Assembly: GCA_964497185.1 (NCBI GenBank)
Contig: CAZCBX010000002.1
Coordinates: 2,533-66,532 of the forward strand
Length of the DNA stretch: 64,000 bases
Direction: 5' to 3'
DNA from: an uncultured Bdellovibrionales bacterium
GTDB taxonomy: Bacteria; Bdellovibrionota_G; JALEGL01; JAGRMV01
A model generated the notes under the pieces. It was not told the origin of the DNA, searched no databases, and worked only from the letters and a program-made list of their open reading frames with translations. The position numbers were made by a program, and so were the translations under genes. Of the stretch, positions 2 through 64,000 are shown piece by piece (the first letter of the stretch is position 1; every line of letters starts with the position of its first letter).

Positions 2-3000
2 GCACCTGCCACCATCGATGAAGGCAGTGACCTTACCTACACGATTACGCTCACCAATAACGGCGCCGCCCAAGCCACCAATGTTGCACTCGATGACAGT
101 TGTCCTGCTGGTACCACGCTTAATACCAGTAGCCAGACTTTGGGCAGTTACGCAGCCCCGACCTGGACCGTGGGCACGTTGACCAATGGTCAAAGCGAAA
201 CGCTCACCTTAAATTGTACGGTCAACGCTGGTCAAGGTGGCAACACGATCAGCAACAGCATTCTGGCCACCGATATCAGTTTGGATCAAGACGACGCCAA
301 TCAGGCCAACAATGCGGCGGGGCCTGTGGATACGGTCGTCAACAACGACGCAGACTTAAGCATTGATAAAACCGCGCCAGCCACCGCCAGCGAAGGCAAT
401 GACATTGTGTACACCATCACGGTGACCAACAATGGTCCTGCCCAGGCCACCAGCGTCACCGTGGATGACAGCTGTCCGGCTGGTACCACCTTGAACACCA
501 ACACCCCATCTTTGGGCAGCTACACACCGCCGACCTGGAGCGTTGGCACACTGGCCAGCGGCCAAAGCGAAACGCTGACTCTAAACTGTACCGTCAATGC
601 CGGTCAGGGCGGCAATACCATCAGCAATAGCATTCTGGCGACCGACATCAGTTTGGATCAAGCTGACGCCAACCAAGCCAACAACGCGGTGGGTCCGGTT
701 GACACCGTCATCGACAACAATGCCGATCTAGCCATCAACAAAACCGCGCCAGCCACCGTGGATGAAGGCAGTGACCTTGTCTATACCATTACCATCAGCA
801 ACGCAGGTCCTGCACAAGCAAGCAGCGTCACGGTTAATGACAGTTGTCCTGCCGGCACCACGCTCAATACCAGCAGTGAAACTTTTGGTAGCTATACGGC
901 GCCAACTTGGACCGTCGGCACCCTCAATGATGGTCAAAGCGAAACGCTTACGTTAAATTGTACCGTCAACGCCGGTCAAGGTGGCAACACGATTAGCAAT
1001 AGCATCTTGGCGACCGACATCAGCCTCGACCAAACCGATCCCAACGCGGCCAACAACGCGATTGGTCCAGTGGACACCGTTGTTAATAACAACGCAGATC
1101 TTGTCATCAACAAAACAGCTGCGGCCACCGTGGATGAAGGCAGTGACATTACTTACACCATCACCTTGACCAACAATGGTCCTGCTCAGGCGACCGGCGT
1201 CGAAGTCGATGATGCTTGTCCCGCTGGCACCACGCTTAACACCAGCAGTGAAACCTTCGGTAGTTATGCGGCACCAACCTGGACTGTCGGCACCCTCAAT
1301 GATGGCCAAAGTGAAACGCTTACTCTGAATTGTACGGTCAGCGCAGGACAGGGTGGCAATACGATCAGCAACAGCATTTTGGCGACCGACATCACGTTGG
1401 ATCAGACCGATTCTAACTTAGCCAACAACGCCGTGGGTCCGATCGATACGGTAGTCAACAACGACGCCGATTTGGCGATCACCAAAACTGCGCCTGCCAC
1501 CATTGATGAAGGCAGTGACATTACCTACACCATCACGTTAACCAACAATGGCGCGGCCCAAGCCACCAGCGTCGAAGTCGATGACAGTTGTCCCGCGGGT
1601 ACAACCCTGAATACCAGTAGTGTCACCTTTGGTAGCTACGCTGCCCCAACCTGGACCGTTGGCACGTTGACCAATGGCCAAACCGAAACCTTAACCTTGA
1701 ATTGTACGGTCAACGCTGGTCAAGGTGGCAACACGATCAGCAACAGTATTTTGGCAACCGACATCACGTTGGATCAAGACGATGGCAATCAAGCCAACAA
1801 TGCTGTGGGTTCGATTGACACGGTGGTCAACAATGACGCCGACTTGGCGATCACAAAAACTGCGCCTGCCACCGTCAATGAAGGCAGTGACATTGTTTAC
1901 ACCATCACGTTAACCAACAACGGTGCCGCGCAAGCCAGCAACGTGGAAGTCGACGATGCATGCCCAGCGGGTACCACGCTTAACACAAGCAGCACAAGCG
2001 TTGGCAGCTACACGGCGCCGACCTGGGCAGTGGGTATTCTCAATGATGGCCAAAGCGCCACATTAACGTTGAACTGTACGGTCAATGCCGGCCAGGGTGG
2101 CAACACCCTTAGCAACAGCATCTTGGCCACCGACATCAGCTTTGATCAAACCGATCCCAATTTGGGGAACAACGCTGTAGGGCCTGTGGATACGATCGTG
2201 AACAACGACGCAGATTTAAGCATCGACAAAACCGCGCCTGCCACCATTGATGAAGGCAGTGACATCACCTACACCATCACGTTAACCAACAATGGCGCGG
2301 CCCAAGCCACCAGCGTCGAAGTCGATGATAGTTGTCCAGCGGGTACTACACTGAATACCAGCAGTGCCACTTTGGGTAGCTACGCTGCGCCGACCTGGAC
2401 GGTGGGTACGTTGACCAATGGCCAAAGCGAAACACTCACTTTGAATTGTACAGTCAGCGTCGGTCAAGGTGGCAACACCCTTAGCAACAGCATTCTGGCC
2501 ACCGACATCACGTTGGATCAAGACGACGCCAACCAAGCCAACAATGCGGTAGGACCGATTGATACGATTGTGAACAACGACGCCGATTTGGCCATTACGA
2601 AAACAGCCCCGGCAACGATCAACGAAGGCAGTGACTTAACCTACACCATTACGGTGACCAACAACGGTGCCGCGCAAGCCACCAACGTTGAAGTCGATGA
2701 CAGTTGCCCCGTGGGTACAACCCTGAATACCAGTAGTGTAACCTTTGGTAGCTACGCTGCCCCAACCTGGACGGTTGGCACGTTGACCAATGGCCAAACC
2801 GAAACCTTAACCTTGAATTGTACTGTCAATGCTGGTCAAGGTGGTAACACGATTAGCAACAGCATCTTAGCGACCGACATCACTTTGGATCAAGACGACG
2901 CCAACCAAGCCAACAATGCGGTGGGTCCTGTCGATACGATTGTGAACAACGACGCCGACTTGGCGATCACGAAAACCGCGCCTGCCACCATCGATGAAGG

Positions 3001-6000
3001 CAGTGACATTGTTTACACCATCACGTTGACCAACAATGGCGCCGCGCAAGCCACCAACGTTGAAGTCGATGACAGTTGTCCCGCGGGCACCACGCTCAAT
3101 ACCAATAGTGTAACCTTCGGTAGTTATGCTGCACCGACCTGGACCGTCGGTACACTGACCAATGGCCAAAGCGAAACGTTAACTTTAAACTGTACCGTCA
3201 ACGCAGGCCAGGGTGGCAACACCATTAGCAACAGCATCTTGGCGACCGACATCACGTTGGATCAAGACGACGCTAACCAAGCCAACAATGCGGTGGGTCC
3301 TGTCGATACGATTGTGAACAACGACGCTGATTTGGCCATTACCAAAACCGCGCCAGCCACCATCGATGAAGGCAGCGACATTGTTTACACCATCACGTTA
3401 ACCAACAACGGTGCTGCACAAGCTAGCAGCGTCGAAGTGGATGACAGTTGTCCCGCGGGCACCACCTTGAATACCAGCAGCGTCACTTTTGGTAGCTACG
3501 CAGCGCCGACCTGGACGGTGGGTACGTTGACCAATGGTCAAACCGAAACCTTAACCTTGAATTGTACCGTCAACGCTGGACAAGGCGGCAACACGATTAG
3601 CAATAGCATTGCGGCGGTTGACATTAATTTGGATCAAACCGATCCGAACTTGGCCAACAATGCGGTCGGTCCTGTGGATACGGTGGTGAACAATGATGCC
3701 GATATGGCGATCACCAAAACCGCGCCAGCCACCATCGACGAAGGCAGCGACATTGTTTACACCATCACGTTAACCAACAACGGTGCCGCGCAAGCTAGCA
3801 GCGTCGAAGTGGATGACAGTTGTCCCGCGGGTACCACCTTGAATACCAGCAGCGTCACTTTTGGTAGCTACGCAGCGCCGACCTGGACGGTGGGTACGTT
3901 AACCAATGGTCAAAGCGAAACGTTAACCTTGAATTGTACCGTCAACGCGGGTCAAGGCGGCAACACCATTAGTAACAGCATCTTCGCGACTGACATTACC
4001 CTGGATCAAACCGATCCGAATTTGGCCAACAACGCCGTCGGTCCCGTTGATACCGTGGTGAACAATGACGCCGATTTAAGCATCGATAAAACCGCCCCCG
4101 CGACAATCAACGAAGGCAGCGACCTGACCTACACCATTACACTGACCAACAACGGTGCCGCGCAGGCCACCAATGTTGAAGTCGATGACAGCTGTCCTGC
4201 AGGCACCACGCTCAATACCAGCAGTGCCACCTTCGGTAGCTATGCTGCGCCAACCTGGACGGTGGGCACGTTGACCAATGGCCAAACCGAAACCTTAACC
4301 TTAAACTGTACGGTCAGTGCCGGTCAAGGTGGCAACACCATTAGCAACAGCATTGCGGCTGTGGACATTGTATTGGATCAAACCGATCCGAACTTGGCCA
4401 ACAACAGCACAGGGCCCATTGATACATTGGTCAACAATGTCGCCGATCTTACAACAAACAAAACCGCGTCCGCCACCGCCAATGAAGGCAGTGACATCGT
4501 GTACACCATCGTGTTAACCAACAATGGCCCCGCCCAAGCCAACAACGTAACGCTCACCGACAGCTGCCCAGCCGGCACCACTTTTAATGGTAGCACGCCC
4601 ACCCAAGGCAGCTATATCGCACCAACCTGGACCGTGGGCGATTTGAACAGCGGTGCAACCGCCACGCTAACCCTCAATTGCAACGTGAACGCAGGTCAAG
4701 GCGGCAACACCATCACCAATACCATTGTGTCTGGCGATCTAAGCATGGATCAAACCGAAGGCAACGCCGCCAACGATGGATCCAGCGCCAGCACCACCAT
4801 CAACAACATCACCGACGTAGCCTTTACCAAAACCGGTCCGCTGGGCTCGCAGGTGGCGCTCGACATTGTTTATACCATCACCGCCACCAACAACGGCCCC
4901 AACACCGCCACTTCTGTGATGATCACCGATAACTGCCCTGCCGGCACCACCTACAATGCCGCCGGCACCTCTGCCACCGAGGGAGCCTATGCCGCTGGCG
5001 TGTGGAACTTGGGCACCCTCGAAAACGGCGATACTGAAACGTTAACTTTGGCGTGTACCGTCGACGCTGGCGAAGAAGCCAACACCATCACCAACAGCCT
5101 AAGCATTGCCAGCTTATCCATGGATCAAGCCGACACCAACACCGGCAACAACGTAGCATCTGTCAGCACGCTGATTGCAGACGTAGGTTTGGGCGGTGTA
5201 TACGCTGGCGATGAATTCTGGACCGTTATTCCGCGTAACCTTGACCAAGGTGGATCGGGCCCATGTTTCAACGGTGATTGTATTGTCACTGTACAAGGTG
5301 AAGTGGGGACAACGGTTGTGGTTAATGGTGTCACAACCGTCATTCCAGCCGCTGGTCAGTTTACGCAAGTGATGTCAGAAGCCAACGATGTTGCGCCTGT
5401 GACAGGCATATCCTCCACTGCGCCATTTGAAATCACAGCCGACGATCTGATTACCGTATTTGTAGGTAATGCACTGAGCCAACCGACTTCCTCTGGCACA
5501 TTGATTTTACCCGTCTTTGCATTGGGCCAAACCTATTACTCTATCGGCGAACCGGAGATTCAAAATAACGTTCCTGCGCTGACGTTCCATCAGATTATCG
5601 TGGTTGCCACCGAAGATACCACCACGATTAACGTCGATGGAGATGTTCAAGTGTTGGATGAAGGAGAGTCTTACTCCTACAGAGAAAATTCATTTAATAA
5701 CGACATTACCGGTCGTTTGATCACGGCCGATAAACCGATCGCCGTATTTACCTCAAACCCGTGCTTGGATACCATCGTCGGATCTGGCGCATGTGACGCA
5801 ACCATGGTCCAACTTGAGCCATTTGACCTTGCCTCCGACACAGAATTTTTATTTGGTGGTTTCAGCATTCAAGATGAAAGAGTCAAATGTGTGGCGATTG
5901 AAGATACCACTTCCATTACGCTCAACGGAGTAGCGGTTCCAGGAACGTTCGATGCGGGGGATGTCTATCAAGTTGCCAATAACACTGTGGCCCACATTCA

Positions 6001-6367
6001 AGCCGATAAACCGCTCACCTGCGGCGTCATGTTGATTGGGGGCGCCGGGCAAACTGATCCAGCGTATTCCGCATTGCCTGGTATCAATCATGGCGTGAAA
6101 GAAGCTTCCTACCCTGTACCCACACCATTCTTAAATGGTAATATGACGGTCATGGTGCGCACAGCCGATACAGGTTCCTTCCTTTATGATGGTGGAACGC
6201 TAGCGGGTTGGACTGCGTTCCCATCAAAGCCCAGCTGGTCTTACAATATCATTAACATCACAGCAGGTGCGCATACCCTAGAAGCCGATACAGCATTTAT
6301 ACCTTTAATGGCTGTTCGGCCTGTAGCCAATGCTGCGTATGCAACTGTTTTAGGAGCATTATGGTAA
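2..6367 (+). CDS. Giant surface/adhesin-like protein with DUF11-type tandem repeats (5'-partial; continues upstream of the window). A non-repeat C-terminal domain of about 400 aa follows.
   Basis: The reading frame is open from nt 2; the track ORF 140..6367 is only its first Met. A ~125-aa unit (KTAPATIDEGSDITYTITLTNNGAAQA..CPAGTTLNTSS..GSYAAPTWTVGTL.NGQSETLTLNCTVNAGQGGNTISNSILATDI.LDQ.D.N.ANNAVGPVDTVVNNDADLAI.K) repeats at an exact 375-nt period (about 367, 742, 1113, 1488, 1863 ... 4460). Nucleotide identity between units is very high. This is the conserved-repeat-domain (DUF11) architecture. Confidence 0.8.
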   Translation, partial: APATIDEGSDLTYTITLTNNGAAQATNVALDDSCPAGTTLNTSSQTLGSYAAPTWTVGTLTNGQSETLTLNCTVNAGQGGNTISNSILATDISLDQDDANQANNAAGPVDTVVNNDADLSIDKTAPATASEGNDIVYTITVTNNGPAQATSVTVDDSCPAGTTLNTNTPSLGSYTPPTWSVGTLASGQSETLTLNCTVNAGQGGNTISNSILATDISLDQADANQANNAVGPVDTVIDNNADLAINKTAPATVDEGSDLVYTITISNAGPAQASSVTVNDSCPAGTTLNTSSETFGSYTAPTWTVGTLNDGQSETLTLNCTVNAGQGGNTISNSILATDISLDQTDPNAANNAIGPVDTVVNNNADLVINKTAAATVDEGSDITYTITLTNNGPAQATGVEVDDACPAGTTLNTSSETFGSYAAPTWTVGTLNDGQSETLTLNCTVSAGQGGNTISNSILATDITLDQTDSNLANNAVGPIDTVVNNDADLAITKTAPATIDEGSDITYTITLTNNGAAQATSVEVDDSCPAGTTLNTSSVTFGSYAAPTWTVGTLTNGQTETLTLNCTVNAGQGGNTISNSILATDITLDQDDGNQANNAVGSIDTVVNNDADLAITKTAPATVNEGSDIVYTITLTNNGAAQASNVEVDDACPAGTTLNTSSTSVGSYTAPTWAVGILNDGQSATLTLNCTVNAGQGGNTLSNSILATDISFDQTDPNLGNNAVGPVDTIVNNDADLSIDKTAPATIDEGSDITYTITLTNNGAAQATSVEVDDSCPAGTTLNTSSATLGSYAAPTWTVGTLTNGQSETLTLNCTVSVGQGGNTLSNSILATDITLDQDDANQANNAVGPIDTIVNNDADLAITKTAPATINEGSDLTYTITVTNNGAAQATNVEVDDSCPVGTTLNTSSVTFGSYAAPTWTVGTLTNGQTETLTLNCTVNAGQGGNTISNSILATDITLDQDDANQANNAVGPVDTIVNNDADLAITKTAPATIDEGSDIVYTITLTNNGAAQATNVEVDDSCPAGTTLNTNSVTFGSYAAPTWTVGTLTNGQSETLTLNCTVNAGQGGNTISNSILATDITLDQDDANQANNAVGPVDTIVNNDADLAITKTAPATIDEGSDIVYTITLTNNGAAQASSVEVDDSCPAGTTLNTSSVTFGSYAAPTWTVGTLTNGQTETLTLNCTVNAGQGGNTISNSIAAVDINLDQTDPNLANNAVGPVDTVVNNDADMAITKTAPATIDEGSDIVYTITLTNNGAAQASSVEVDDSCPAGTTLNTSSVTFGSYAAPTWTVGTLTNGQSETLTLNCTVNAGQGGNTISNSIFATDITLDQTDPNLANNAVGPVDTVVNNDADLSIDKTAPATINEGSDLTYTITLTNNGAAQATNVEVDDSCPAGTTLNTSSATFGSYAAPTWTVGTLTNGQTETLTLNCTVSAGQGGNTISNSIAAVDIVLDQTDPNLANNSTGPIDTLVNNVADLTTNKTASATANEGSDIVYTIVLTNNGPAQANNVTLTDSCPAGTTFNGSTPTQGSYIAPTWTVGDLNSGATATLTLNCNVNAGQGGNTITNTIVSGDLSMDQTEGNAANDGSSASTTINNITDVAFTKTGPLGSQVALDIVYTITATNNGPNTATSVMITDNCPAGTTYNAAGTSATEGAYAAGVWNLGTLENGDTETLTLACTVDAGEEANTITNSLSIASLSMDQADTNTGNNVASVSTLIADVGLGGVYAGDEFWTVIPRNLDQGGSGPCFNGDCIVTVQGEVGTTVVVNGVTTVIPAAGQFTQVMSEANDVAPVTGISSTAPFEITADDLITVFVGNALSQPTSSGTLILPVFALGQTYYSIGEPEIQNNVPALTFHQIIVVATEDTTTINVDGDVQVLDEGESYSYRENSFNNDITGRLITADKPIAVFTSNPCLDTIVGSGACDATMVQLEPFDLASDTEFLFGGFSIQDERVKCVAIEDTTSITLNGVAVPGTFDAGDVYQVANNTVAHIQADKPLTCGVMLIGGAGQTDPAYSALPGINHGVKEASYPVPTPFLNGNMTVMVRTADTGSFLYDGGTLAGWTAFPSKPSWSYNIINITAGAHTLEADTAFIPLMAVRPVANAAYATVLGALW
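367..4835 (+). repeat. In-frame tandem array of 375-bp coding repeats, 12 or more units in this span; more lie upstream.
   Basis: Exact 375-nt periodicity of the motif aaaac(c/a/t)gcgcc(a/t)gcc and of long identical stretches such as accatcacgttaaccaacaa. Confidence 0.85.
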
Positions 6368-43440: not shown

Positions 43441-43965
43441 ATGAAAAATATCATTTGGATTTTGTGTGCGGTCGTTACCGCAGTTCCCGCTTTTGCAACC
43501 ACCACCACACCATTGCTGAGCAGTCGTGAATACACGGTGGGCGCGGGCGACATTGAAACCTCCTTTTTCTTTGAACCTTCCATTGTCAGCGTAAACGGAA
43601 ACTCCAACAATTCGCTGACCTTTCAAGCAGGTGCCAACTTGTTCATGGATGACGTATTTGCACCCGGTGTAGAATTTGAATGGACTGCTTTCGAGAACGC
43701 CGATAATCGTTTTCGACTCTTGCCCAACGTCAAAGCCTACTTGCCCAACCGATCCCGTTTTTTACCCTACATGCAAGCAGGATTGGGTTTTACAAGAGCC
43801 TTCGACGAAAACTTTTTGACCCTCACCCTCGGACCAGGCATCAACTATATGCTCTCCAACACCGTCGCCATCGGCGGCCAGCTTCGTTATGACTTAAACG
43901 TAGGCACAGAAAACTTGCACGAAGTAAGCATCCCCGTCCAATTCGCCATCTACTTTAGATATTAA
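43441..43965 (+). CDS. Small outer-membrane beta-barrel protein (OmpW/OmpA-like family).
   Basis: Signal peptide MKNIIWILCAVVTAVPAFA, alternating amphipathic strands, C-terminal aromatic AIYFRY. Confidence 0.5.
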   Translation: MKNIIWILCAVVTAVPAFATTTTPLLSSREYTVGAGDIETSFFFEPSIVSVNGNSNNSLTFQAGANLFMDDVFAPGVEFEWTAFENADNRFRLLPNVKAYLPNRSRFLPYMQAGLGFTRAFDENFLTLTLGPGINYMLSNTVAIGGQLRYDLNVGTENLHEVSIPVQFAIYFRY

Positions 43966-43976
43966 GTAAGATCAAT

Positions 43977-43996
43977 TTCCATGGTTTTCCATGGAA
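43977..43996. promoter_or_regulatory. Perfect palindrome TTCCATGG-tttt-CCATGGAA immediately upstream of the RHH antitoxin start; candidate autoregulatory operator.
   Basis: 8-4-8 perfect inverted repeat. Confidence 0.4.
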
Positions 43997-44016
43997 ATTT
44001 ATGGTATGCTAAAACC

Positions 44017-44223
44017 ATGAAAGAAGGAAACTTGGCAGTTGTACTGCCCATGGATTTAAAAAAAGCGGTTAGCAATCACTGCAAAGAACATGGGTTAAAG
44101 ATGAAAAAATTTGTTGAAGAAGCATTGATCGAAAAACTCGAAAACACAATGGATATTGCCTCTATTGCGGCACGTGAAAATGAAGAAACCATTCCTCTCA
44201 GTGAAGTACTCAAAAAACTATAA
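44017..44223 (+). CDS. Ribbon-helix-helix (CopG/ParD-like) antitoxin.
   Basis: MKEGNLAVVLPMDLKKAV beta-strand plus helix pattern. Overlaps the downstream toxin gene. Confidence 0.5.
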   Translation: MKEGNLAVVLPMDLKKAVSNHCKEHGLKMKKFVEEALIEKLENTMDIASIAARENEETIPLSEVLKKL

Positions 44224-44485
44224 AATCGAACTGAAAAAATCAGCCGCAAAAGAGCTGATCAAAATCCCCAAAACCTACCAACAACAAATTATTGATGGCT
44301 TAAAAGTACTGGAATCCAATCCAAACACACAAATCCTAGACATTAAAAAACTTCAGACCAAAGGAGACTTTTTCCGCCTCCGCATTGGATTATACCGAGT
44401 CATCTACGAAGTGCGTAAAAGCCAAGTTTTGATTTATGTGATCAAAATCGCTCACCGAAAAGAAGTCTACAAAAAACTCAAGTGA
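44180..44485 (+). CDS. RelE/ParE-family toxin.
   Basis: About 100 aa, Lys-rich, with a C-terminal RIGLYRVIYEV..VLIYVIKIAHRKEVY typical of the ParE/RelE fold. Paired with the upstream RHH gene. Confidence 0.55.
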   Translation: MKKPFLSVKYSKNYKIELKKSAAKELIKIPKTYQQQIIDGLKVLESNPNTQILDIKKLQTKGDFFRLRIGLYRVIYEVRKSQVLIYVIKIAHRKEVYKKLK

Positions 44486-44746: not shown

Positions 44747-45655
44747 TTAATCCAAATCCATTTTATCCACATTAAACCCCTTCAACGTCTCCGCAATCCC
44801 CTCAAAATCCTTATGAAAATCATTTTCACGCAGCTGCAACTGCGCATTAAAATTACCCGCTTTCAATTGTCGAATGTACCGACGAAGCGCCACCATGGGC
44901 CCTACAGAACGATGCGATAAAATAAGCGTAAAGAGAAAAAAGATAAAGCAGTACACGCTGACAATTAAAAATATGCCTAAAAAGAAATATTGATAAATAT
45001 GTTCTTGCACCTGAAGCTGAGGATCGACATAACTTTTTAAAAAACTATACGAAAACAGGGATAGGGTGGTGCATACCAACAGCACGGCAGACACATTCCA
45101 AAAAGCGAGTGTGAGTTGATAAGGCTTGTCAATCAAGTAGGTTTTACGATTGTTGTTTTCGTTCCATAGCTCGTCACCGTAGCTGTATATGCAAATGATG
45201 GTGATGATGGTGCCCGCCATAAGCTGCATGTCAGCAAGATTGAATGCATAGGATTTAAATGGACCCCAGGGTAGGTTGATAAAATCGCGGACAAAGCCCA
45301 ACAGAGTTTTGTCAATGACGTTGCCCATGATGCCCGCAACAAACACGGTTAGCCCCAGTTTCAACCAGTACACCCGTTTGTTTTGAAAAAAATACAAAAG
45401 CACAAAATACAGTGCCAGCGCATAGCCGCCCAGGGTGCTAAAAAAAACCACGCGGACCAATTCCCGAAACTGAGCGAACGATCCAAAGATTAAGCCAAAG
45501 TTTTTAACGGGTATAATTTGCAGCAAGCGACCACGAATGGGCTCTTCCAGATTGTAACCCCACTGCTTGGTGATTAAATCGAGACCGACCAAAAACGTTA
45601 ATAGGCCAACGGCCAAACCGAAGTGAAACCGTTTTTCTCGGCGTTCATGAGACAT
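44747..45655 (-). CDS. lspA: Lipoprotein signal peptidase II (LspA) fused to a C-terminal 2TM plus HAMP-like module.
   Basis: Residues 1-165 align with LspA (GNVIDK and FNLADM catalytic Asp motifs). Residues about 166-302 add two TM helices plus SHRSVGPMVALRRYIRQLKAGNF...NDFHKDFEGIAETLKGF, which matches a HAMP AS1-connector-AS2 pattern. Confidence 0.7.
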   Translation of the reverse strand: MSHERREKRFHFGLAVGLLTFLVGLDLITKQWGYNLEEPIRGRLLQIIPVKNFGLIFGSFAQFRELVRVVFFSTLGGYALALYFVLLYFFQNKRVYWLKLGLTVFVAGIMGNVIDKTLLGFVRDFINLPWGPFKSYAFNLADMQLMAGTIITIICIYSYGDELWNENNNRKTYLIDKPYQLTLAFWNVSAVLLVCTTLSLFSYSFLKSYVDPQLQVQEHIYQYFFLGIFLIVSVYCFIFFLFTLILSHRSVGPMVALRRYIRQLKAGNFNAQLQLRENDFHKDFEGIAETLKGFNVDKMDLD

Positions 45656-55943: not shown

Positions 55944-56996
55944 ATGAATGTACAAGAAATTACGTCGATTTTAAAAGAGCATGAGAGTTTGCTTTCTCAT
56001 GAGTGCCAAACGATTGCCAAAGATCGGTTGCATTTGCCGGGTCCGGATTTTGTGGATCGGATTTTTGGTCCGTCCGATCGCAATATCAATGTGTTAAAGA
56101 ATTTAGAATGGCTTCACCAAACGGGACGTTTGGCGGGTACGGGGTATCTTTCAATTTTGCCCGTAGACCAAGGCATCGAGCATACGGCAGGGGCTTCCTT
56201 TGCGCCCAATCCAGATTATTTTGATCCTGAAAACATTGTCAAGCTGGCCCTTGAGGGTGGTTGCAATGCGGTGGCGTCTACGTTTGGAGTGTTGGGCCGT
56301 GTGGCGCGAAAATATGCCCATAAGATTCCTTTTATTGTAAAACTCAATCACAATGAGCTGCTGACGTATCCCAATAAATTTGATCAGGTGGCATTTACTT
56401 CACCCCAAGAGGCTTATGAGATGGGCGCTGCGGGCGTAGGGGCCACGATCTATTTTGGCTCGGAGCAGTCCAATCGACAGCTGGTGGAAATCGCGGATAT
56501 GTTTGCACAGGCTCACGCGCTTGGCATGTTTACGGTGCTTTGGTGTTATGCCCGCAACAGTGCGTTTAAAAAAGGTGGCAAAGATTATCACGTCGCCACT
56601 GATATTACATCCCAAGCCAATCACCTGGGTGTCACCATTGGTGCAGATATTATCAAACAAAAGCTACCCGAGAACAATGGCGGTTTTACCGATGTGGGTT
56701 TCGCCAAAACACATCCTTTGATGTACGACAAGCTTAGCTCGGATCATCCCATTGATCTTACGCGCTATCAAGTGGCCAATTGTTATATGGGTCGAGCGGG
56801 CTTGATCAATTCGGGTGGGGCATCGGGCGACAATGATTTGCAGGATGCGGTAAAAACGGCGGTTATCAACAAACGTGCAGGTGGCATGGGGTTGATTTCG
56901 GGCCGCAAAGCATTTCAAAAGCCGCTCAATGAAGGCATTGAGATTCTTCATGCCATTCAGGATGTGTACCTCTGTAAAGAAATTACGGTGGCTTAA
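55944..56996 (+). CDS. fbaB: Class I fructose-bisphosphate aldolase (FbaB/DhnA type).
   Basis: 350 aa; conserved DhnA-type TIM-barrel with the Schiff-base Lys region. Confidence 0.75.
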
Positions 56997-58003
56997 TGGC
57001 CACCATGCCAACCGCTGGAACCTTTCCCCATACGCGTTTGCGGCGCACGCGACAGTCTGCCTGGGTGCGCAATTTGGTTCGACAAACCCGCTTAAGCGTT
57101 CATGACCTTATCTGGCCCTTGTTTGTTGTGGACGGTCAGAATCAACAAGTGGAAGTGCCCGCCATGCCCGGTGTATTTCGGTACAGCGTGGACCAAATCG
57201 TGGAGATGGCATTGCGCGCGCAAGATGTAGGTATTCCGGCAGTGGCCTTGTTTCCATATACACAGCCACAGCTGAAAAACGCGCAGGCAACCGAAGCCGT
57301 TAATCCAGATAACCTTGTTTGTCGGGCCGTGCGCGCGGTTAAAAAAGCCGCTCCCAACCTGGGCGTACTTTGTGATGTGGCACTGGATCCATACACCAAT
57401 CACGGCCATGATGGGTTGTTGAAAGATGGCAAAATTGTCAATGATGCCACATTGGCGGTGTTGACCAAGCAAGCATTGGTGCAAGTGGAAGCCGGTTGCG
57501 ATATTTTGGGACCTTCTGACATGATGGATGGACGTGTGGGCGCCATTCGAAAAGCATTGGAAGAACAAGGCATGACCGATGCGTTGATCATGTCGTATGC
57601 GGCCAAATATGCATCGGGCTTTTATGGTCCGTTTCGTGATGCCGTGGGTTCTCGCGCTGCACTGGAGGGTGATAAAAAAACCTATCAACAAGATCCGGCC
57701 AACAGCGATGAAGCGTTGCGCGAGGTCGCGCTGGATATCGAAGAAGGCGCGGACATGGTGATGGTCAAACCAGGTATGCCATATTTGGACATCATCGGGC
57801 GCATTAAGGAAAGTTTTGCTGTCCCGACCTTTGCCTATCAAGTCAGTGGCGAATACAGCATGATCAAAGCAGCCAGCGCCCAGGGTTGGTTGGACCAAGA
57901 CATCATCATGATGGAAAGTCTGTTGTGTTTAAAGCGTGCGGGTGCCAGCGGGATTCTGACATACTTTGCCTATGATGCCGCACAAAAGTTAGCCAAGCGA
58001 TAA
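56996..58003 (+). CDS. hemB: Porphobilinogen synthase (delta-aminolevulinic acid dehydratase).
   Basis: HTRLRR...DLIWPLFV N-terminus, ALDPYTNHGHDG active-site region, VMVKPG Lys. TAATG overlap with fbaB. Confidence 0.9.
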   Translation: MATMPTAGTFPHTRLRRTRQSAWVRNLVRQTRLSVHDLIWPLFVVDGQNQQVEVPAMPGVFRYSVDQIVEMALRAQDVGIPAVALFPYTQPQLKNAQATEAVNPDNLVCRAVRAVKKAAPNLGVLCDVALDPYTNHGHDGLLKDGKIVNDATLAVLTKQALVQVEAGCDILGPSDMMDGRVGAIRKALEEQGMTDALIMSYAAKYASGFYGPFRDAVGSRAALEGDKKTYQQDPANSDEALREVALDIEEGADMVMVKPGMPYLDIIGRIKESFAVPTFAYQVSGEYSMIKAASAQGWLDQDIIMMESLLCLKRAGASGILTYFAYDAAQKLAKR

Positions 58004-59383
58004 ACCCGCCACCGCTTGAGCACTTTGCTCCATCAGGTCGGGTATGCCCACTTTCGAATAGCCATTGCCCAAAAGTACAATGCCATCAAAAGGTTCAACG
58101 CCTTTAAAAATTTGCTCAACGCGCTGGGCATGGCCCAAAGTGTATTGAGGCATGCTGTTGGGCCAACGCTGTAGGTAGGTGTGCTGCGGCTGTCCAGTGA
58201 TGTCGAGCAGCGCTTGCAAATCGGCCCAAGCCCAATCGGTCAATTCTTGGTCGGATGCGGTCAACAGATCTTCCTGCATGGCGCCACCCAGAAAAGCACG
58301 AATTAACACTTTGCCCTGCGGCGCGCGGTGGGCAAATTTTTCACTGCAAAAAGTGCTGGCCAAAATGTGGCGTTGTTCCTTGGCGGGTACAATCATGCCC
58401 ATGGCATGAATGCGATCGTCCACTTGGTTTTGATTAAAAATAAAATGTGCAATGGCGCTGGATGCAAAAGAAATGTCACGAAGCTCATTTTTGATAGGGG
58501 CCGGTAAGAAATTGGCCAAATGCGCCACATTTCGGGGTGGGGTGGCAAATATCACGTGATCAAACAATTCCAACTGGCCTTGTACACGCACTTGCCATTG
58601 GCCTTGCGCGGTGGCATCCACCGATTGCACCAGCGTGTTTGTACGAATCCATGCAGGGGGAAGTTGATTGGCCAAGGCATCGATGAGGGTTTGCATGCCG
58701 TTGTTAAAAGAGCGAAAGCTCCCATATCGAGGTCCACTGGCATGCGCGCCCATGCCCTCCTTTTTCATGCCTTTTAAAATGCTTCCGTACTTTTTTTCAA
58801 GAGCCACAAATTGAGGCAGTGTGCTTTGCATGCTTAAGCGATGCGGATCGGCAGTATAAATGCCCCCAATCATGGACTGGGTAATTTCTTCCAAGTTGCC
58901 TCTGCCAAAACGACGCGTGATAAACGAGGCCAGCGATTCATCGGAGGTCTCAGTTCGACGGGGCATCCATGGTTCCATCAACGTTCGGAGTTTGGTGGAC
59001 CAGCTTAAAGCGGGGCTTTTTAAAAAGGCCAGGCGTTGGGTGGGGCCCATCAAGTAAAACCCTTTGGGCGTGGTCAACATTTTACCAGCACGAACGATGT
59101 AGCTTTTTCGATTGTGGGCATTGGGTTCCATGAGCTCAGGGGTCAGTCCCAATGCGTCAATGACCTTTGCGATATGGGGTTTGTACAAAAAAGCGTCGGG
59201 CCCTTTTTCGATCAGGCAGTCCTGGTCCCGAAAGGTTTGAATGATGCCGCCCAGATGATTTTTCTGTTCAAAAAGGCTGCATGAAACATCTGGACGTTTT
59301 TGAAACAGCGCATGCGCGGCAGACAACCCGGCGATACCCCCGCCAATAATGGCAATGTTAGGCTTGGGTTTGCTCGTGGACAT
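57989..59383 (-). CDS. hemY: Protoporphyrinogen oxidase (FAD, HemY type).
   Basis: IAIIGGGIAGLSAAHAL dinucleotide motif; 464 aa. Tail-to-tail with hemB; overlaps hemE by 26 nt. Confidence 0.8.
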   Translation of the reverse strand: MSTSKPKPNIAIIGGGIAGLSAAHALFQKRPDVSCSLFEQKNHLGGIIQTFRDQDCLIEKGPDAFLYKPHIAKVIDALGLTPELMEPNAHNRKSYIVRAGKMLTTPKGFYLMGPTQRLAFLKSPALSWSTKLRTLMEPWMPRRTETSDESLASFITRRFGRGNLEEITQSMIGGIYTADPHRLSMQSTLPQFVALEKKYGSILKGMKKEGMGAHASGPRYGSFRSFNNGMQTLIDALANQLPPAWIRTNTLVQSVDATAQGQWQVRVQGQLELFDHVIFATPPRNVAHLANFLPAPIKNELRDISFASSAIAHFIFNQNQVDDRIHAMGMIVPAKEQRHILASTFCSEKFAHRAPQGKVLIRAFLGGAMQEDLLTASDQELTDWAWADLQALLDITGQPQHTYLQRWPNSMPQYTLGHAQRVEQIFKGVEPFDGIVLLGNGYSKVGIPDLMEQSAQAVAGLSLG

Positions 59384-60368
59384 ATTCGATCAGTCGAATG
59401 ACATTTTCAACAGGGGTTCGGGGTTTGATGCCATGGCCCAAATTAAAAATATAGCCAGGTCGGCCATCAACTTCAGCCAATATGCGGTCGGTTTCTTTTT
59501 GAATCACCGAAAAATCTTCCAGCAGCACGTCTTGGTTTAAATTGCCTTGAATGGGCATAAAGTCCAGCGTGGGCCAAATTTGATCAATGTTTACATCGCT
59601 GTCCAGTCCCATGACCGTTGAGCCAGCTTGTTTCATCGTTGGCAAAAGTTCGCGAGTGCGCGTACCAAAATAGATGGTGGGCACTTGAGACATCGCCGCA
59701 AAAATTCGTTTCATATGGGGCAGTACATGCGCTGTGTACTCTTCAGGCGTCAGCAAACTGATCCAGCTGTCGAAAAGCTGAATAACGTCCGCTCCGTGTT
59801 GTACTTGCATGTTTAAATAAGCAATGGTGCCGTCGGTAAGATGGGTCATCAGGGTTTGAAAAGCTTCTGGATCTTCTTGCATGAGCGTGCGCACGTGCCG
59901 AAAATCTTTGGATTTCCCCCCTTCAATGCAGTAGGTGGCCACGGTGAAGGGCGCCCCTGCAAAACCAATCAGTGCTTTGTGGGCGGGTAATGCGCGACGC
60001 GTTTGGCGCAAGGCATGACCCACGTAGGTGAGTTCTTCGATATCAATTTTTTCAGGGTAGGGCGCGCGGGTTCCAGCGCGCAAGGGATTATGAATGATGG
60101 GGCCATGGTTTTTGGCAAACTCCAGCTTAAAGCCCAAGCATTCGGTGATCAGCAAAATATCTGCAAAAATAATGGCCGCGTCTGCACCGATGGTTTCGCA
60201 TGCAAATACCGTGGTTTCACAGACCAGTTCCGGTGCTTTGCACAGTTCTAAAAAAGATACTTTGGCACGAAGATCGCGGTATTCTTTCATGTAACGTCCG
60301 GCCTGGCGCATGAGCCAGACTGGGGTATGAGACACTGGTTTTTGGGCGATGGCATCAAGTAGCAACAT
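59358..60368 (-). CDS. hemE: Uroporphyrinogen decarboxylase.
   Basis: PVWLMRQAGRYM N-terminal signature; 336 aa. Confidence 0.9.
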   Translation of the reverse strand: MLLLDAIAQKPVSHTPVWLMRQAGRYMKEYRDLRAKVSFLELCKAPELVCETTVFACETIGADAAIIFADILLITECLGFKLEFAKNHGPIIHNPLRAGTRAPYPEKIDIEELTYVGHALRQTRRALPAHKALIGFAGAPFTVATYCIEGGKSKDFRHVRTLMQEDPEAFQTLMTHLTDGTIAYLNMQVQHGADVIQLFDSWISLLTPEEYTAHVLPHMKRIFAAMSQVPTIYFGTRTRELLPTMKQAGSTVMGLDSDVNIDQIWPTLDFMPIQGNLNQDVLLEDFSVIQKETDRILAEVDGRPGYIFNLGHGIKPRTPVENVIRLIEYVHEQTQA

Positions 60369-60475
60369 GAGGGGGTTGTATCATAAACTGGGTAGAACAG
60401 CATGAAAGTTTCACTGTTCGCGTTAAAAGTTTTACCCTTTCCACCATGCACTCTTTTTTTTACAGTGCTGTGGAG

Positions 60476-61123
60476 CTAAAGTGCGCTGGCGCGACAGTTG
60501 CCTACACCGGCTTGAATGGTTCGGTCGCTGGGGATGGTGTCGATAACGGTGCCAGCAGAATTTCGCTCGACCAGCTCGACCACCCCTGCGCGACTGGACT
60601 CAATTTCGCGCGCGCTTTTGGAGTCTTCATCGATGCCTTCTCCAATAATGCATATCTGTTGGCCATGGCGCACCACTGTATTGGGGGTGGTCGACTTATC
60701 TACGCGAACGGTAAAGCCTTGAGGATCGTACATCACAATGCCTCGGTGTTGGATGAGGGGTGTACAGTTTTTACAAAACACCACGTCACTGTCAAAAGTG
60801 TAAAGACGTAGAATGTCTTCATTGCCAAAACATCGGTCTTGCAACGGGACCCCGTTGGTATCCAGGGCAGGGTTGTATGCAAAGACGCGTTCTCCGCCAC
60901 TATTGGAAAAAAAACACACCCCGACATATTTGTTTTGAAGGGCGGCAGTGGATTGTGCAAAGAGCAAAATATTCAACATTTCATTGGCGGTGGTGTTCAA
61001 ACGGGTGAGTTTTCGATCGGGTGAAAAAGTGGCGATGGATAAAGTAATCAAAATGGTGGCAATGAGTAAGGTGACGGCCATCTCAATCAAATTAAAGCCT
61101 TGATTGGAAAAAGTGCGTTGCAT
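60476..61123 (-). CDS. Type IV minor pilin (FimT/GspH-like) with a prepilin N-methylation motif.
   Basis: GFNLIEMAVTLLIATILI class III signal motif after a short leader. Confidence 0.6.
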   Translation of the reverse strand: MQRTFSNQGFNLIEMAVTLLIATILITLSIATFSPDRKLTRLNTTANEMLNILLFAQSTAALQNKYVGVCFFSNSGGERVFAYNPALDTNGVPLQDRCFGNEDILRLYTFDSDVVFCKNCTPLIQHRGIVMYDPQGFTVRVDKSTTPNTVVRHGQQICIIGEGIDEDSKSAREIESSRAGVVELVERNSAGTVIDTIPSDRTIQAGVGNCRASAL

Positions 61124-61244
61124 GGAACCATTATACCGCCTTTTATTTCAATCCATAAAGAGGTTTTTTCTCAAAGGTTTCATATAAGTGCTCGAAAACA
61201 AAAATAACTTGTCCAAAGGGCGGATGAAAAGGTAAAATATAACC

Positions 61245-61709
61245 ATGTTCAAATACTTGTTTAAAAACCGTCGCTGGATCAAATTCATCGATCCAAAGCA
61301 GCAAACGCGTCTGGCTTTGGAAATCGTATTGCTGGTTTTGCTTTTTCCGGTCTTGTTTTACATTTTGACCGTCAGCGAGCTGTGGTCCACCATATTCTTT
61401 GGTGACCAGGCAGAAGTGATGCGCAACTTGTTTTACAGCCAGCTGATGCTAATGACCAAGGCTTGGCACGTCATTTTGCTCATTGTGTTATTCATCGCAT
61501 TTTTAAGCGTCTTTTTTACCCATAAATTGTTTGGCCCGATTTATCGCTTCACCCAAGCGCTCGAAGAAAAGATGGAAGGCCAAAAAGACATTTATGCAGA
61601 CATTCGCAAAGGCGACTATTTTGAAGAATTTGCACAACTGGTCAAACGCATCACCCGAGACGATGTAGAGTTGAAAGTGCCCCATGAACCCACGGACACA
61701 CAAAGGTAA
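61245..61709 (+). CDS. Small 2TM membrane protein with a C-terminal HAMP-like module (stand-alone).
   Basis: TM1, loop, TM2, then HKLFGPIYRFTQALEE...GDYFEEFAQLVKRI (HAMP-like). Paralog of 61719..62249 and of the LspA C-terminal extension. Confidence 0.4.
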   Translation: MFKYLFKNRRWIKFIDPKQQTRLALEIVLLVLLFPVLFYILTVSELWSTIFFGDQAEVMRNLFYSQLMLMTKAWHVILLIVLFIAFLSVFFTHKLFGPIYRFTQALEEKMEGQKDIYADIRKGDYFEEFAQLVKRITRDDVELKVPHEPTDTQR

Positions 61710-61718
61710 TTCAAACAA

Positions 61719-62249
61719 ATGTGGAAAAAACTAAACGAAAAACTTTTTAAAACCAAGCGCACCACCATTTGGATTGTGCCCGATAGCCAAACGCAATTTA
61801 TTTGGGATTTGGTGAAACACTATGTGCTAATATTGTTTGTTTTTATTTTTTTTGCGTACATGCCACCGTTTGCGGGCATGTTTTCCATCCACTCTGTGGA
61901 AGCCCATCAATCCGCCTTTCGTGACTTTGTAGCAATCAATCAAGCCAAATGGCCTTTGTGGTTGGTCTTAGCGCTTGTTTTTGTTTTTTACGCAGTCATG
62001 ATCTCTCACCGCATTTTTGGACCTTTGTTCAAACTTAGAAGCTACCTAGAACAAGACCAAAATGAGTCTCTTTCTTATCCGCTGTCTTTTCGCGAGGGGG
62101 ATTATCATGGTTCTTTGCCAGAAGTCATCAACGGCTATCGGCAAAGTCAACTCGCCCAAAAGGAGCAAATTTTACTTGAGCTGCAACAATTGGCTGAAAA
62201 ATACCCCCAAGACTCGCAGCTTCAAGCGCTTATTCAAAAACTATCGTAA
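61719..62249 (+). CDS. Small 2TM membrane protein with a HAMP-like module, paralog of 61245..61709.
   Basis: Shared motifs I(V/D)P(D/K)(S/Q)QT and SHRIFGPLFKLRSYLEQ...GDYHGSLPEVINGY. Confidence 0.4.
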   Translation: MWKKLNEKLFKTKRTTIWIVPDSQTQFIWDLVKHYVLILFVFIFFAYMPPFAGMFSIHSVEAHQSAFRDFVAINQAKWPLWLVLALVFVFYAVMISHRIFGPLFKLRSYLEQDQNESLSYPLSFREGDYHGSLPEVINGYRQSQLAQKEQILLELQQLAEKYPQDSQLQALIQKLS

Positions 62250-62281
62250 CGTTCAATGAATGATTAATGAAGGAGTCGTAA

Positions 62282-63187
62282 ATGATGATCCACGCCCTAC
62301 AGCCCCGCCGTCGAGCCCATCGTGGCATGACTTTTATCGAACTAATGGTTGGCATGGTCTTAACTGGCGTCATCATTACCTCTACGTATCGAATCTTTAA
62401 GTCGACCAGCAAAAGCACCATTCAAAATGTTGAAAGCAGCAAAGCGGAGCTGGATGTAAAACGTTTTGTTTCGATGGTCAGCAATGACATTGAGCGTGCA
62501 GGCAGTGATCCTACAGGCCGAGCGCTGTATGGCTACATTAAATTTGATGAATGTGGTCCCGCCTCAGCCGACCCTGAATATCAAGCGCCGGTGCAAATCG
62601 TCTATGGCATCAATCCGGCACCCGCCAATGAAGATTGTTCTGTGCAAATTGGTGAATTCGGTTTGATGTCCTATTTGCCATTTGATGAAAACAATGATGG
62701 CGAGATTGGCCCAGAAGAGGGATTGTCTTTTGATGCCGATGACAACGGTACCGTGGACCCCTACGAGGGATTGGGTGTGGGGGTGTTGGCTAGTCCCTTA
62801 CTGCGCAAAGAGACGGACGATTACATTGTGTATGACTTATACGACAGTGATGGAGATGGTTTGGACGATACCATTCGCAGAATCAATGTTGGCAATGCGT
62901 TTGATGACACCGATGATGTGGCCGAAGACGTACTGCGCAATGTGGCAGACATTGAGGTTCAATACTTTGGCATTGTTGCCGGCACTGATGGAGAATATGG
63001 CGAGATTGACAACTTGACGTTTTTTAACAACATGCGCGAAATTCAAATTACCGTGTATTCACTCTACGGTGATTTTGACCCAGGATACACCAATCCTTTT
63101 TTCGACAGTGATCACCCTTATTACAATCATCGCACCAACCGAACCGTATTTCGGGTCGGAGTGAATGTGATTAAGCCCGAAGCTTAA
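62282..63187 (+). CDS. Type IV minor pilin (PilW-like) with Asp-rich Ca-binding-type loops.
   Basis: Leader MMIHALQPRRRAHRG then MTFIELMVGMVL (prepilin cleavage/methylation motif). DENNDGEIGPEE, DADDNGTVDPYE and DSDGDGLDD loops of DxDxDG type. Confidence 0.55.
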   Translation: MMIHALQPRRRAHRGMTFIELMVGMVLTGVIITSTYRIFKSTSKSTIQNVESSKAELDVKRFVSMVSNDIERAGSDPTGRALYGYIKFDECGPASADPEYQAPVQIVYGINPAPANEDCSVQIGEFGLMSYLPFDENNDGEIGPEEGLSFDADDNGTVDPYEGLGVGVLASPLLRKETDDYIVYDLYDSDGDGLDDTIRRINVGNAFDDTDDVAEDVLRNVADIEVQYFGIVAGTDGEYGEIDNLTFFNNMREIQITVYSLYGDFDPGYTNPFFDSDHPYYNHRTNRTVFRVGVNVIKPEA

Positions 63188-63221
63188 TTTCGAATGGATT
63201 TGAAGTTTCTGTGAGATTCAT

Positions 63222-63297
63222 GGGGCCCGAGGCCGTTCGCATTCACGGGGTCTCCACAGCAAAGCGAGCACTTAGCGAGCTTCAAGCCCAAAAAACC
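63222..63297. repeat. Degenerate family-2-like repeat (hybrid arms gggcccgagg ... caagcccaaaaaac).
   Basis: Shares both arm types and a degraded core (ggggtctcc...gcgagc..ttagcgagc). Confidence 0.4.
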
Positions 63298-63412
63298 GTG
63301 ACCTCAAGCAACTTTGAAACCCATGAGTTGGCCACTGCATCCAGGGCCAAAAGATCGTGGCTAGATATATTGCGTGACTGCTTGAAATGCGCAACAGCAC
63401 TTCGATATTTGG

Positions 63413-63997
63413 CTACAATAAATTGATGACAAACTTTTCAAAAACGGCTTCTTTGCAATTGCCGTTTTTGTCGCGATAGGCGGCAGATACTTTGATAAGG
63501 ACTCTGTTGTCGTCTGGCTCGTCACAGTACAGACTATTGGGGCGGTCGTTGGAGTCTACAAGGTCACAGGGCGTGGCATCTTTGGGGTCTTGATCGTACA
63601 GCGTTACTTTGTCGGGGTGGGTGTTGTCTTGGCAGACCATGTGATGCAGAAAATAAATAAAAGGTCCTTCGTTGGAGCCGTCGTCGGGTTCACCATAGAT
63701 GTTTAAATTTTCTTGTGAGATCACTTCTGCACCTGGACCTCCCAAACGCAATTTTTCATCCGCGGTAACACCTGTACCAAGGGCAGCATATTGTATTTTA
63801 GACAATTCATTGATTTTGGCTTTGGCCAAAGTAATGGCGTTTTCGTAATTGTTTCGATTGGTCTTGGTAATCATCACTTGCGAAAGCATACCCGCCATGC
63901 CCAAAAAGCCGATGGATAACACAACCATGGTGACCATGGCCTCGATAATGGAGATTCCTTTGCAGCTTGACGTGGGGAACGGATGTTTCCACCTCAA
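63413..63997 (-). CDS. Type IV pilus minor pilin PilV-like.
   Basis: GISIIEAMVTMVVLSIGFLGMAGM matches the PilV N-terminal consensus; 194 aa. Confidence 0.65.
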   Translation of the reverse strand: MRWKHPFPTSSCKGISIIEAMVTMVVLSIGFLGMAGMLSQVMITKTNRNNYENAITLAKAKINELSKIQYAALGTGVTADEKLRLGGPGAEVISQENLNIYGEPDDGSNEGPFIYFLHHMVCQDNTHPDKVTLYDQDPKDATPCDLVDSNDRPNSLYCDEPDDNRVLIKVSAAYRDKNGNCKEAVFEKFVINLL

Positions 63998-64000
63998 GGG

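Follow-up and report, generated by a model that had tools for sequence, protein, structure and literature searches.

HAMP domains (PF00672), as found in Af1503, Tsr, NarQ and WalK, follow directly after the second transmembrane (TM) helix, TM2, and consist of two segments, AS1 and AS2, joined by a connector, with a proline at the start of AS1 and a glycine at the start of the connector. We describe here a family of small membrane proteins that share this arrangement but carry neither a sensor nor an output domain. Three copies lie in a stretch of 64,000 nucleotides from an uncultured Bdellovibrionales bacterium (contig CAZCBX010000002.1, positions 2,533 to 66,532), hereafter the window: two stand-alone proteins, P1 and P2, are encoded in tandem within a minor-pilin cluster, and the third forms the C-terminal extension of a lipoprotein signal peptidase, LspA. 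The window copies fall below every HAMP threshold, and the family further differs from known HAMP domains in the start of AS2, which reads (K/E)(G/N)D(Y/F) instead of DExG, and in an added cytoplasmic N-terminal peptide, R...(I/V)Dx3Q. Its genomic association points to an undescribed accessory factor of type IV pili.

Among described systems, the one that the family most plausibly works like, by analogy, is HtrII, the transducer of sensory rhodopsin II, in which HAMP likewise follows two TM helices that are joined with hardly any extracytoplasmic part. HtrII reads its partner membrane protein through lateral TM contacts. However, it continues into a full signalling domain of the methyl-accepting chemotaxis protein (MCP) type with CheA/CheW coupling, whereas the family proteins end after the HAMP unit or a short coiled coil; moreover, its partner is sensory rhodopsin II, while the putative partner of the family is a single-helix prepilin. 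Histidine kinases of the intramembrane-sensing BceS/LiaS type delegate sensing to a partner membrane protein and likewise have two TM helices and a minimal external loop, but they possess a kinase core, which is missing from the family. Pilin-responsive kinases are also known: PilS senses PilA, and fimS-algR adjoins the minor-pilin operon. PleC senses PilA in Caulobacter (PMC7196804). The likeness of PilS, FimS/AlgZ of Pseudomonas aeruginosa and PleC to the family lies in their being inner-membrane proteins that respond to membrane-held pilins or minor pilins; they are, however, histidine kinases that differ in TM architecture and have defined response regulators, and no sequence relationship to the family was found. 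PilN/PilO and GspL/GspM are, like the family, small inner-membrane proteins of type IV filament systems, but they are bitopic, have periplasmic domains and are encoded with the machinery genes, and no profile match to them was found in the family.

P1 (61245..61709, + strand) has 154 residues and P2 (61719..62249, +) has 176, and the positions given for both by the initial annotation agree exactly with the open reading frame (ORF) listing. The third copy (44747..45178, - strand) occupies residues 160-302 (143 residues) of the LspA protein. Common to the three are a basic N-terminus with (I/V)Dx3Q, two TM helices, and the pattern S/T-H-R/K-x-x-G-P ... G ... R-x-G/N-D-Y/F. In P1 these parts are the N-terminus with RRWIKFIDPKQQ, TM1 at about residues 22-43, a short periplasmic helix at 45-72, TM2 at about 74-92, and THKLFGP...EG...RKGDYF. 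P2 repeats the layout of P1 and adds a helical C-terminal tail of about 35 residues; its HAMP-like segment (62004..62147, +), placed from alignments, reads SHRIFGP ... REGDY .... The LspA copy shows NNNRKTYLIDKPYQ, TM1, a loop of 8 residues, TM2, and SHRSVGP...AGN...RENDF. The N-terminal motif originally proposed as shared holds for its I, D and Q, which all three have, and fails in the remainder, as the third copy reads I-D-K-P-Y-Q-L.

The similarity among the copies was measured by pairwise BLASTP, which aligned P1 with P2 at E 6e-12 over 140 ungapped columns, P2 with the LspA C-terminus at E 4e-9, and P1 with the LspA C-terminus at E 1e-4 over 141 columns. In the three-way alignment, R10, I15, Q20, H93, G97, P98, R121 and D124 (P1 numbering) are invariant, and since all of them lie outside the hydrophobic helices, the resemblance is not mere TM composition but goes well beyond it. 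When every six-frame ORF of the window was searched with a profile of the three copies, no fourth copy emerged (next best E 0.11), and the motif [ST]H[RK]x(1-2)GP was confined to the three as well. Thus, the proposal of a paralogous family with three copies in 64 kb is borne out, and P1, P2 and the LspA C-terminal extension are, as judged from these alignments, true paralogues.

Each copy has two hydrophobic segments and a positively charged N-terminus (charge +6 in P1). The TM helices are joined by a short periplasmic loop, without a periplasmic or ligand-binding domain. An AlphaFold2 model of P1, built from an alignment of 123 sequences (mean pLDDT 85.2, pTM 0.66), shows helices at residues 17-43 (TM1), 45-72 (the short external segment) and 74-110, where TM2 runs unbroken into a cytoplasmic helix, followed by coil at 111-126 and a helix at 127-137, with pLDDT of 81-90 in the HAMP-like part. 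The N-terminal peptide R-x5-(I/V/F)-(I/V)-D-x3-Q is kept throughout the family, and conservation is concentrated in cytoplasmic residues, namely this peptide, the S-H-R-x-x-G-P junction and R121/D124. The C-terminus of LspA ends in the cytoplasm; because the module is fused after the last TM helix of LspA, and by the positive-inside rule, it is predicted to be N-in with a cytoplasmic C-terminal domain.

The HAMP-like segment of P1 (61521..61658, +; residues 93-138) directly follows TM2, which ends at about residue 92. In the model the TM2 helix is continuous with AS1, which extends to residue 110; the connector covers residues 111-126, with G112 at its start, and AS2 residues 127-137. Hydrophobic residues read from the sequence are spaced by three to four positions in both AS1 (I99/F102/L106) and AS2 (F126/F129/V133/I136). 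In alignments of 10, 66 and 123 sequences G97-P98 is invariant and G112 nearly so, and these correspond to the HAMP proline and glycine positions. AS2 begins with R-x-(G/N)-D-(Y/F), in which R121 and D124 are invariant: the acidic residue is kept, but the motif differs from the DExG of HAMP domains.

The assignment comes mainly through relatives. PF00672 was matched by 16 of 66 diverse family members at E<=0.1, with a best value of 1.2e-9, and no other family recurred; one member, P0112, scores 44.7 bits (the Pfam gathering threshold is 25 bits) on the segment homologous to the HAMP-like part, and precomputed PF00672 matches are present in many members of a branch of about 195 residues. A profile of this branch matched, in the PDB, a poly-HAMP kinase (1.4e-5), the TM2-HAMP region of Tsr (2.5e-5) and HAMP1 of HtrII (9e-5). 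Alignment of the family with the Af1503 HAMP by hhalign was weak (E 0.021, probability 2.2%), in a register placing GP on RP and GE on EG. The NCBIfam matches were all local and sub-threshold, on the TM2-HAMP region of MtrB, WalK, BaeS, NarQ, CpxA and MCPs. Pfam and NCBIfam searches with the three copies and ten relatives assigned no family, and a PDB sequence search with a profile of 10 sequences gave no meaningful match; matches to SUa-2TM, Yip1 and DUF2207_C were dismissed as chance-level TM similarity. The HAMP homology of the window copies is therefore transitive, as it is their relatives, and not the copies themselves, that match PF00672. Taken with the helix-connector-helix that AlphaFold2 places after TM2, these matches indicate that the module is a divergent HAMP, and the term HAMP-like used at first is supported in this indirect way. 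The absence of an output domain, also claimed then, was confirmed for all three copies in Pfam and NCBIfam, and neither an MCP signalling domain nor HisKA plus HATPase_c was found in the three copies or in relatives among the matches listed.

The family is large. A word-indexed search with the three paralogues retrieved 13 proteins, including orthologues with 45-62% identity from Bdellovibrionota-type metagenomes and three further LspA fusions; identity of P1 orthologues is 41-62%, and P0016 is the orthologue of P2. An exhaustive profile search, covering 1.84 billion representatives of clusters at 50% identity, gave 3,882 clusters at E<=1e-10 and 10,763 at E<=1e-3. Among the 150 matches listed (162 with the earlier ones) almost all are stand-alone, with a median length of 190 residues and mostly 150-200. 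Tandem double modules, with two 2TM-HAMP units in 307-369 residues, occur in P0017, P0024, P0163 (Planctomycetota-type) and P0112. In the source databases these proteins are named 'hypothetical protein' and occasionally, in UniRef, 'HAMP domain-containing protein', while automatic labels of the Joint Genome Institute (JGI) call them 'methyl-accepting chemotaxis protein' or 'nitrogen fixation/metabolism regulation signal transduction histidine kinase'. We rejected the JGI names, as neither an MCP domain nor HisKA/HATPase_c is present in family members among the matches listed. That the family had not been described before was likewise upheld: no dedicated Pfam or NCBIfam model, no informative source name and no description in the searchable literature was found.

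The gene context of the stand-alone copies is formed by prepilin genes. Upstream and divergent from P1 lies a FimT/GspH-like gene (60476-61123, -), with a GspH match at E 6e-4 (20.7 bits, against a cut-off of 21), an N_methyl match at E 0.096 only and the motif QG|FNLIEMAV read directly from the sequence. The intergenic region of 121 bp (61124..61244) holds a sigma-70-like site at 61209-61238 (+) ahead of P1, recognised by consensus match only. P2 is followed by a PilW-like gene (62282..63187, +; N_methyl 8.9e-6, motif RG|MTFIELMVG, ribosome-binding site AAGGAG) and this by a PilV-like gene (63413..63997, -; N_methyl 3.4e-4). The neighbouring prepilin-type genes of the window carry a class III signal sequence. 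On the 437-kb metagenome contig that carries the window, the cluster runs past the window end, and the local order is hemB, hemY(-), hemE(-), then FimT/GspH-like(-), P1, P2, PilW-like, PilV-like(-), a 510-residue PilX-like gene and a 179-residue bitopic protein(-), then smpB. P1 and P2 are 9 bp apart and P2 and pilW 32 bp, and a search of 60300-64000 revealed nothing resembling a terminator, so that P1-P2-pilW is an apparent operon. The location of P1 and P2 among fimT-, pilW- and pilV-like genes, as first described, is thus backed by the GspH and N_methyl matches and the motifs of the flanking genes.

A P1 orthologue lies inside a minor-pilin cluster (N_methyl, PilX_N) in five other Bdellovibrionota-type lineages, in one of them with entirely different flanks. 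No other protein of the cluster is nearly as well conserved as P1, whose identity is 41-58%, whereas the pilins reach 22-28%. A further locus (L053) also has P1 and P2 in tandem, and P0004 and P0016 share one contig of 4,856 bp.

Some observations concern the composition of these clusters. In the minor-pilin operon of three relatives (L004 4744-5981, L007 4728-5980, L064 4605-5990), the P1 orthologue comes after genes for two conserved proteins of 274-301 and 138-153 residues, each apparently with a single TM segment and neither with a Pfam match. The window cluster is without both at that position, and a similar-looking protein of 179 residues is encoded downstream, a little past the window end (L001 14410-14949). 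Several Bdellovibrionota-type clusters carry two or three family copies, the copy number varying between lineages, and the copies are interleaved with pilin genes (L006 10766-11197 and 11891-12160; L066 3876-4409 and 5001-5570); L006 looks frameshifted in several genes, with hemE in pieces. The synteny of hemY-hemE, the minor-pilin cluster and smpB-purM-infA-SPOR-pyrF-SpoU is kept across several lineages (window 56996-60368, L001, L004, L007, L066); the flanks, made up of housekeeping genes, are stable, and the cluster behaves like a variable island between them.

The association extends to other phyla. In each of the 12 look-ups of exact proteins, which covered Bdellovibrionota, Planctomycetota, a metagenome-assembled genome (MAG) of Thermodesulfobacteriota and a vent metagenome, the family gene had a pilin or pseudopilin gene next to it. 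Of 16 family genes outside Planctomycetota, 13 have a prepilin gene directly downstream on the same strand, at a distance of -4 to +51 bp; the branch of about 195 residues contributes two look-ups (the Thermodesulfobacteriota MAG and the vent metagenome), both with a type IV pilin gene 6-8 bp downstream. In the Planctomycetota-type look-ups (four of four), TadE and/or TadG (Tad + Tad_C) genes adjoin. A scan of GTDB species genomes was limited to the Planctomycetota-type branch and five weak Nitrospirota matches (two sub-alignments). With the Planctomycetota-type sub-alignment, the Pfam families most often met in the two nearest downstream ORFs of 41 loci were Tad (14), VWA (12), TadE (10) and Tad_C (9). 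With locally iterated profiles, TadE/G-like genes, so named because the local TadE and TadG profiles merged after iteration, were found at 18 of 36 Planctomycetota loci, in every case within 2.3 kb, and the interval of 2.5-5 kb held none. Typically, the family gene, TadE, TadG and TadE follow one another there on one strand. The Nitrospirota loci adjoin moaA/moaC/pfk; they may encode ordinary HAMP proteins and were left out of the counts. Finally, P0319, a single ORF of 355 residues on a JGI contig of 1,434 bp, joins a type IV pilin (TIGR02532 above cut-off) to a following module and has an internal Met precisely where the module begins; either a genuine fusion or the merging of two genes in the gene call may lie behind it. 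According to these arrangements, the family gene is predicted to be normally co-transcribed with the following prepilin gene, often with translational coupling, and the link to pilus biogenesis, given the adjacency conserved across phyla, is stronger than first claimed.

Two other neighborhoods were noted. A subset of Planctomycetota paralogues stands beside the gene for nucleoside diphosphate kinase (7 of 75 upstream ORFs; L039, L042-L044, L046, L047 and others, from Pirellulaceae MAGs). At the Thermodesulfobacteriota locus, a gene for prolipoprotein diacylglyceryl transferase (lgt) is found in a group of thiamine genes, 2.5 kb away from the family gene and its pilin gene (L063 3201-3992, -); this is probably a coincidence, mentioned in view of the LspA fusion.

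The third copy is part of an ORF of 302 residues (44747..45655, -). Its lipoprotein signal peptidase II domain (45179..45655, -) matches Peptidase_A8 (PF01252) on residues 20-156 at E 4.9e-21, and the approximately 145 residues that follow have no Pfam match. The motifs GNVIDK and FNLAD, which we take to be those holding the catalytic aspartates, are present, so that the LspA part is probably an active enzyme. The AlphaFold2 model of the fusion is weaker (pLDDT 69) and shows the four LspA helices followed by helices at 177-209, 218-265 and 284-291. The fusion is conserved in at least four proteins (that of the window, P0008, P0009 and P0012) with 27-62% identity and, being kept down to 27%, is not an assembly artefact.

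Taken together, these data suggest that the family proteins are most likely membrane partners or transducers of pilins, particularly minor pilins. As a whole, the best explanation would be a large unnamed 2TM-HAMP-only family tied to the pilins and pseudopilins of type IV filaments, which senses or controls its partner pilin; we give this a probability of about 0.5. The family protein would presumably be a dimer, as are other HAMP proteins, and would bind the hydrophobic N-terminal helix of the partner minor pilin laterally in the membrane. The HAMP unit and the conserved N-terminal peptide would then couple pilin occupancy to the cytoplasmic face, and the protein would report or control the state of the pilin, that is, its storage, processing or loading into the priming complex; the cytoplasmic face could regulate, hold or hand over the pilin. 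In LspA, the module would act in cis on another enzyme handling N-terminal signal-anchor helices. A more specific version is considerably more tentative: a dimeric 2TM-HAMP 'pilin receptor' of type IVa pili (T4aP) and Tad systems that binds signal-anchor helices and controls the processing or release of a minor pilin, or of a prolipoprotein in the case of LspA. If true, it would be the first HAMP protein with a client TM helix as input and with control of membrane-protein maturation, not phosphorylation, as output.

Several results weigh against the partner-pilin explanation. P1, P2 and the LspA tail have no Pfam HAMP match even at E<=10, and Foldseek with the P1 model against the PDB gave nothing significant (best E 0.85); the top of that list, all non-significant, contains WalK, Tsr, McpB, Af1503 and the Aer2 poly-HAMP. 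As there is no output domain, 'signalling' would be without an identified receiver. The LspA fusion is without obvious connection to pili, one bdellovibrio-type paralogue is followed by a lytic transglycosylase (Slt) gene and not by a pilin gene, and at half of the Planctomycetota loci no pseudopilin gene is near, with seven loci adjoining ndk. The observation of the family and its genomic association are nevertheless solid, and the mechanism is a reasoned hypothesis.

Among the alternatives, the one that survives best, although we consider it unlikely, is that the proteins are HAMP-only modulators which pair with the HAMP or coiled coil of a separate sensor kinase, MCP or anti-sigma factor and control how the pilin operon is transcribed while making no contact with the pilins. 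The HAMP homology itself agrees with such a role, as does the tail of the branch of about 195 residues, a coiled coil of 60 residues that aligns with the start of the Tsr signalling helix, and one locus lies after genes for an extracytoplasmic function (ECF) sigma factor and a Ser/Thr kinase and another near a hybrid kinase. However, no kinase, MCP or regulator recurred among the neighbours in the censuses, P1 is almost without a tail after AS2, and a gene so tightly coupled in translation to one pilin gene is more likely to encode a stoichiometric partner than a regulator.

Somewhat less favored is the idea of a module that would recognise any N-terminal signal-anchor helix, whether the class III leader of a prepilin or the signal peptide of a lipoprotein, and would gate or present it to its membrane aspartic peptidase, PilD/TadV in trans or LspA in cis. 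It would account for the fusion to an apparently intact LspA in the at least four divergent proteins described above and for the position of the module directly upstream of prepilin genes elsewhere, and the invariant residues R10, D16, Q20, R121 and D124 are cytoplasmic, where the charged leaders lie. The active site of LspA, though, faces the periplasmic side and that of PilD the cytoplasmic side, so that one shared mechanism is not obvious; in addition, no prepilin peptidase gene adjoins family genes at any examined locus, and the LspA fusion is limited to one clade.

More doubtful still is a structural role in the pilus assembly platform similar to that of PilN/PilO or GspL/GspM. The proteins are membrane-embedded, highly conserved and encoded within pilin clusters, and the two bitopic proteins preceding the gene in relatives would fit a platform, but the genes sit with minor pilins and not with pilMNOPQ or tad machinery genes. 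Moreover, no match to PilN or to the alignment-complex PilO was found; the only PilO-named match, PF06864 (PAP_PilO), represents a different, pilin-accessory family and fell on a neighbouring gene at E 0.066. The resemblance to PilN/PilO suggested by the initial annotation is thus not supported, since there is no Pfam match and the family has two TM helices and a cytoplasmic domain instead of a single TM helix and a periplasmic domain. As for a coincidental neighborhood of generic small membrane proteins unrelated to pili, which the ndk, moaA/moaC and Slt contexts of some members might suggest, it is effectively excluded by pilin-type genes adjacent in 12/12 look-ups and at 13/16 and 18/36 genes across phyla and two filament classes, by the restriction of TadE/G-like matches to within 2.3 kb and by the existence of a single ORF with pilin and module.

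Elsewhere in the window, an overlapping pair of genes (43981-44485, +) encodes a DUF6290 protein (7e-7) and a ParE toxin (2.8e-10) and looks like a type II toxin-antitoxin module; it adjoins lspA and a gene for a small outer-membrane beta-barrel protein (43441-43965). At the other end, 140-6367 (+) encodes a protein of 2,075 residues with 14 DUF11 repeats and a C-terminal IgGFc_binding domain, which is probably a giant surface adhesin.

The HAMP domain type is already known. New, and undescribed in Pfam, NCBIfam, the source annotations and the searchable literature, are the family itself, which has an N-terminal motif of its own and lacks both input and output domains, the coupling of its genes to those of pilins and pseudopilins across phyla, and the LspA fusion. 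A large class of HAMP proteins that have no input or output domain challenges the view of HAMP as a connector between two domains. The family also explains thousands of annotations as 'hypothetical' or, by misnaming, as 'methyl-accepting chemotaxis' proteins. Little is understood of how the minor-pilin priming complex is maintained, put in order and loaded at the base of type IV filaments, or of how cells sense the pilin pool of the membrane. Because the family travels with one specific minor pilin or pseudopilin gene in the T4aP and Tad systems of distant phyla, it is a concrete new candidate for minor-pilin priming or for pilin-pool sensing. Since cultivable carriers exist, such as Botrimarina colliarenosi (Pla108_00710) and Crateriforma conspicua, this idea is testable.

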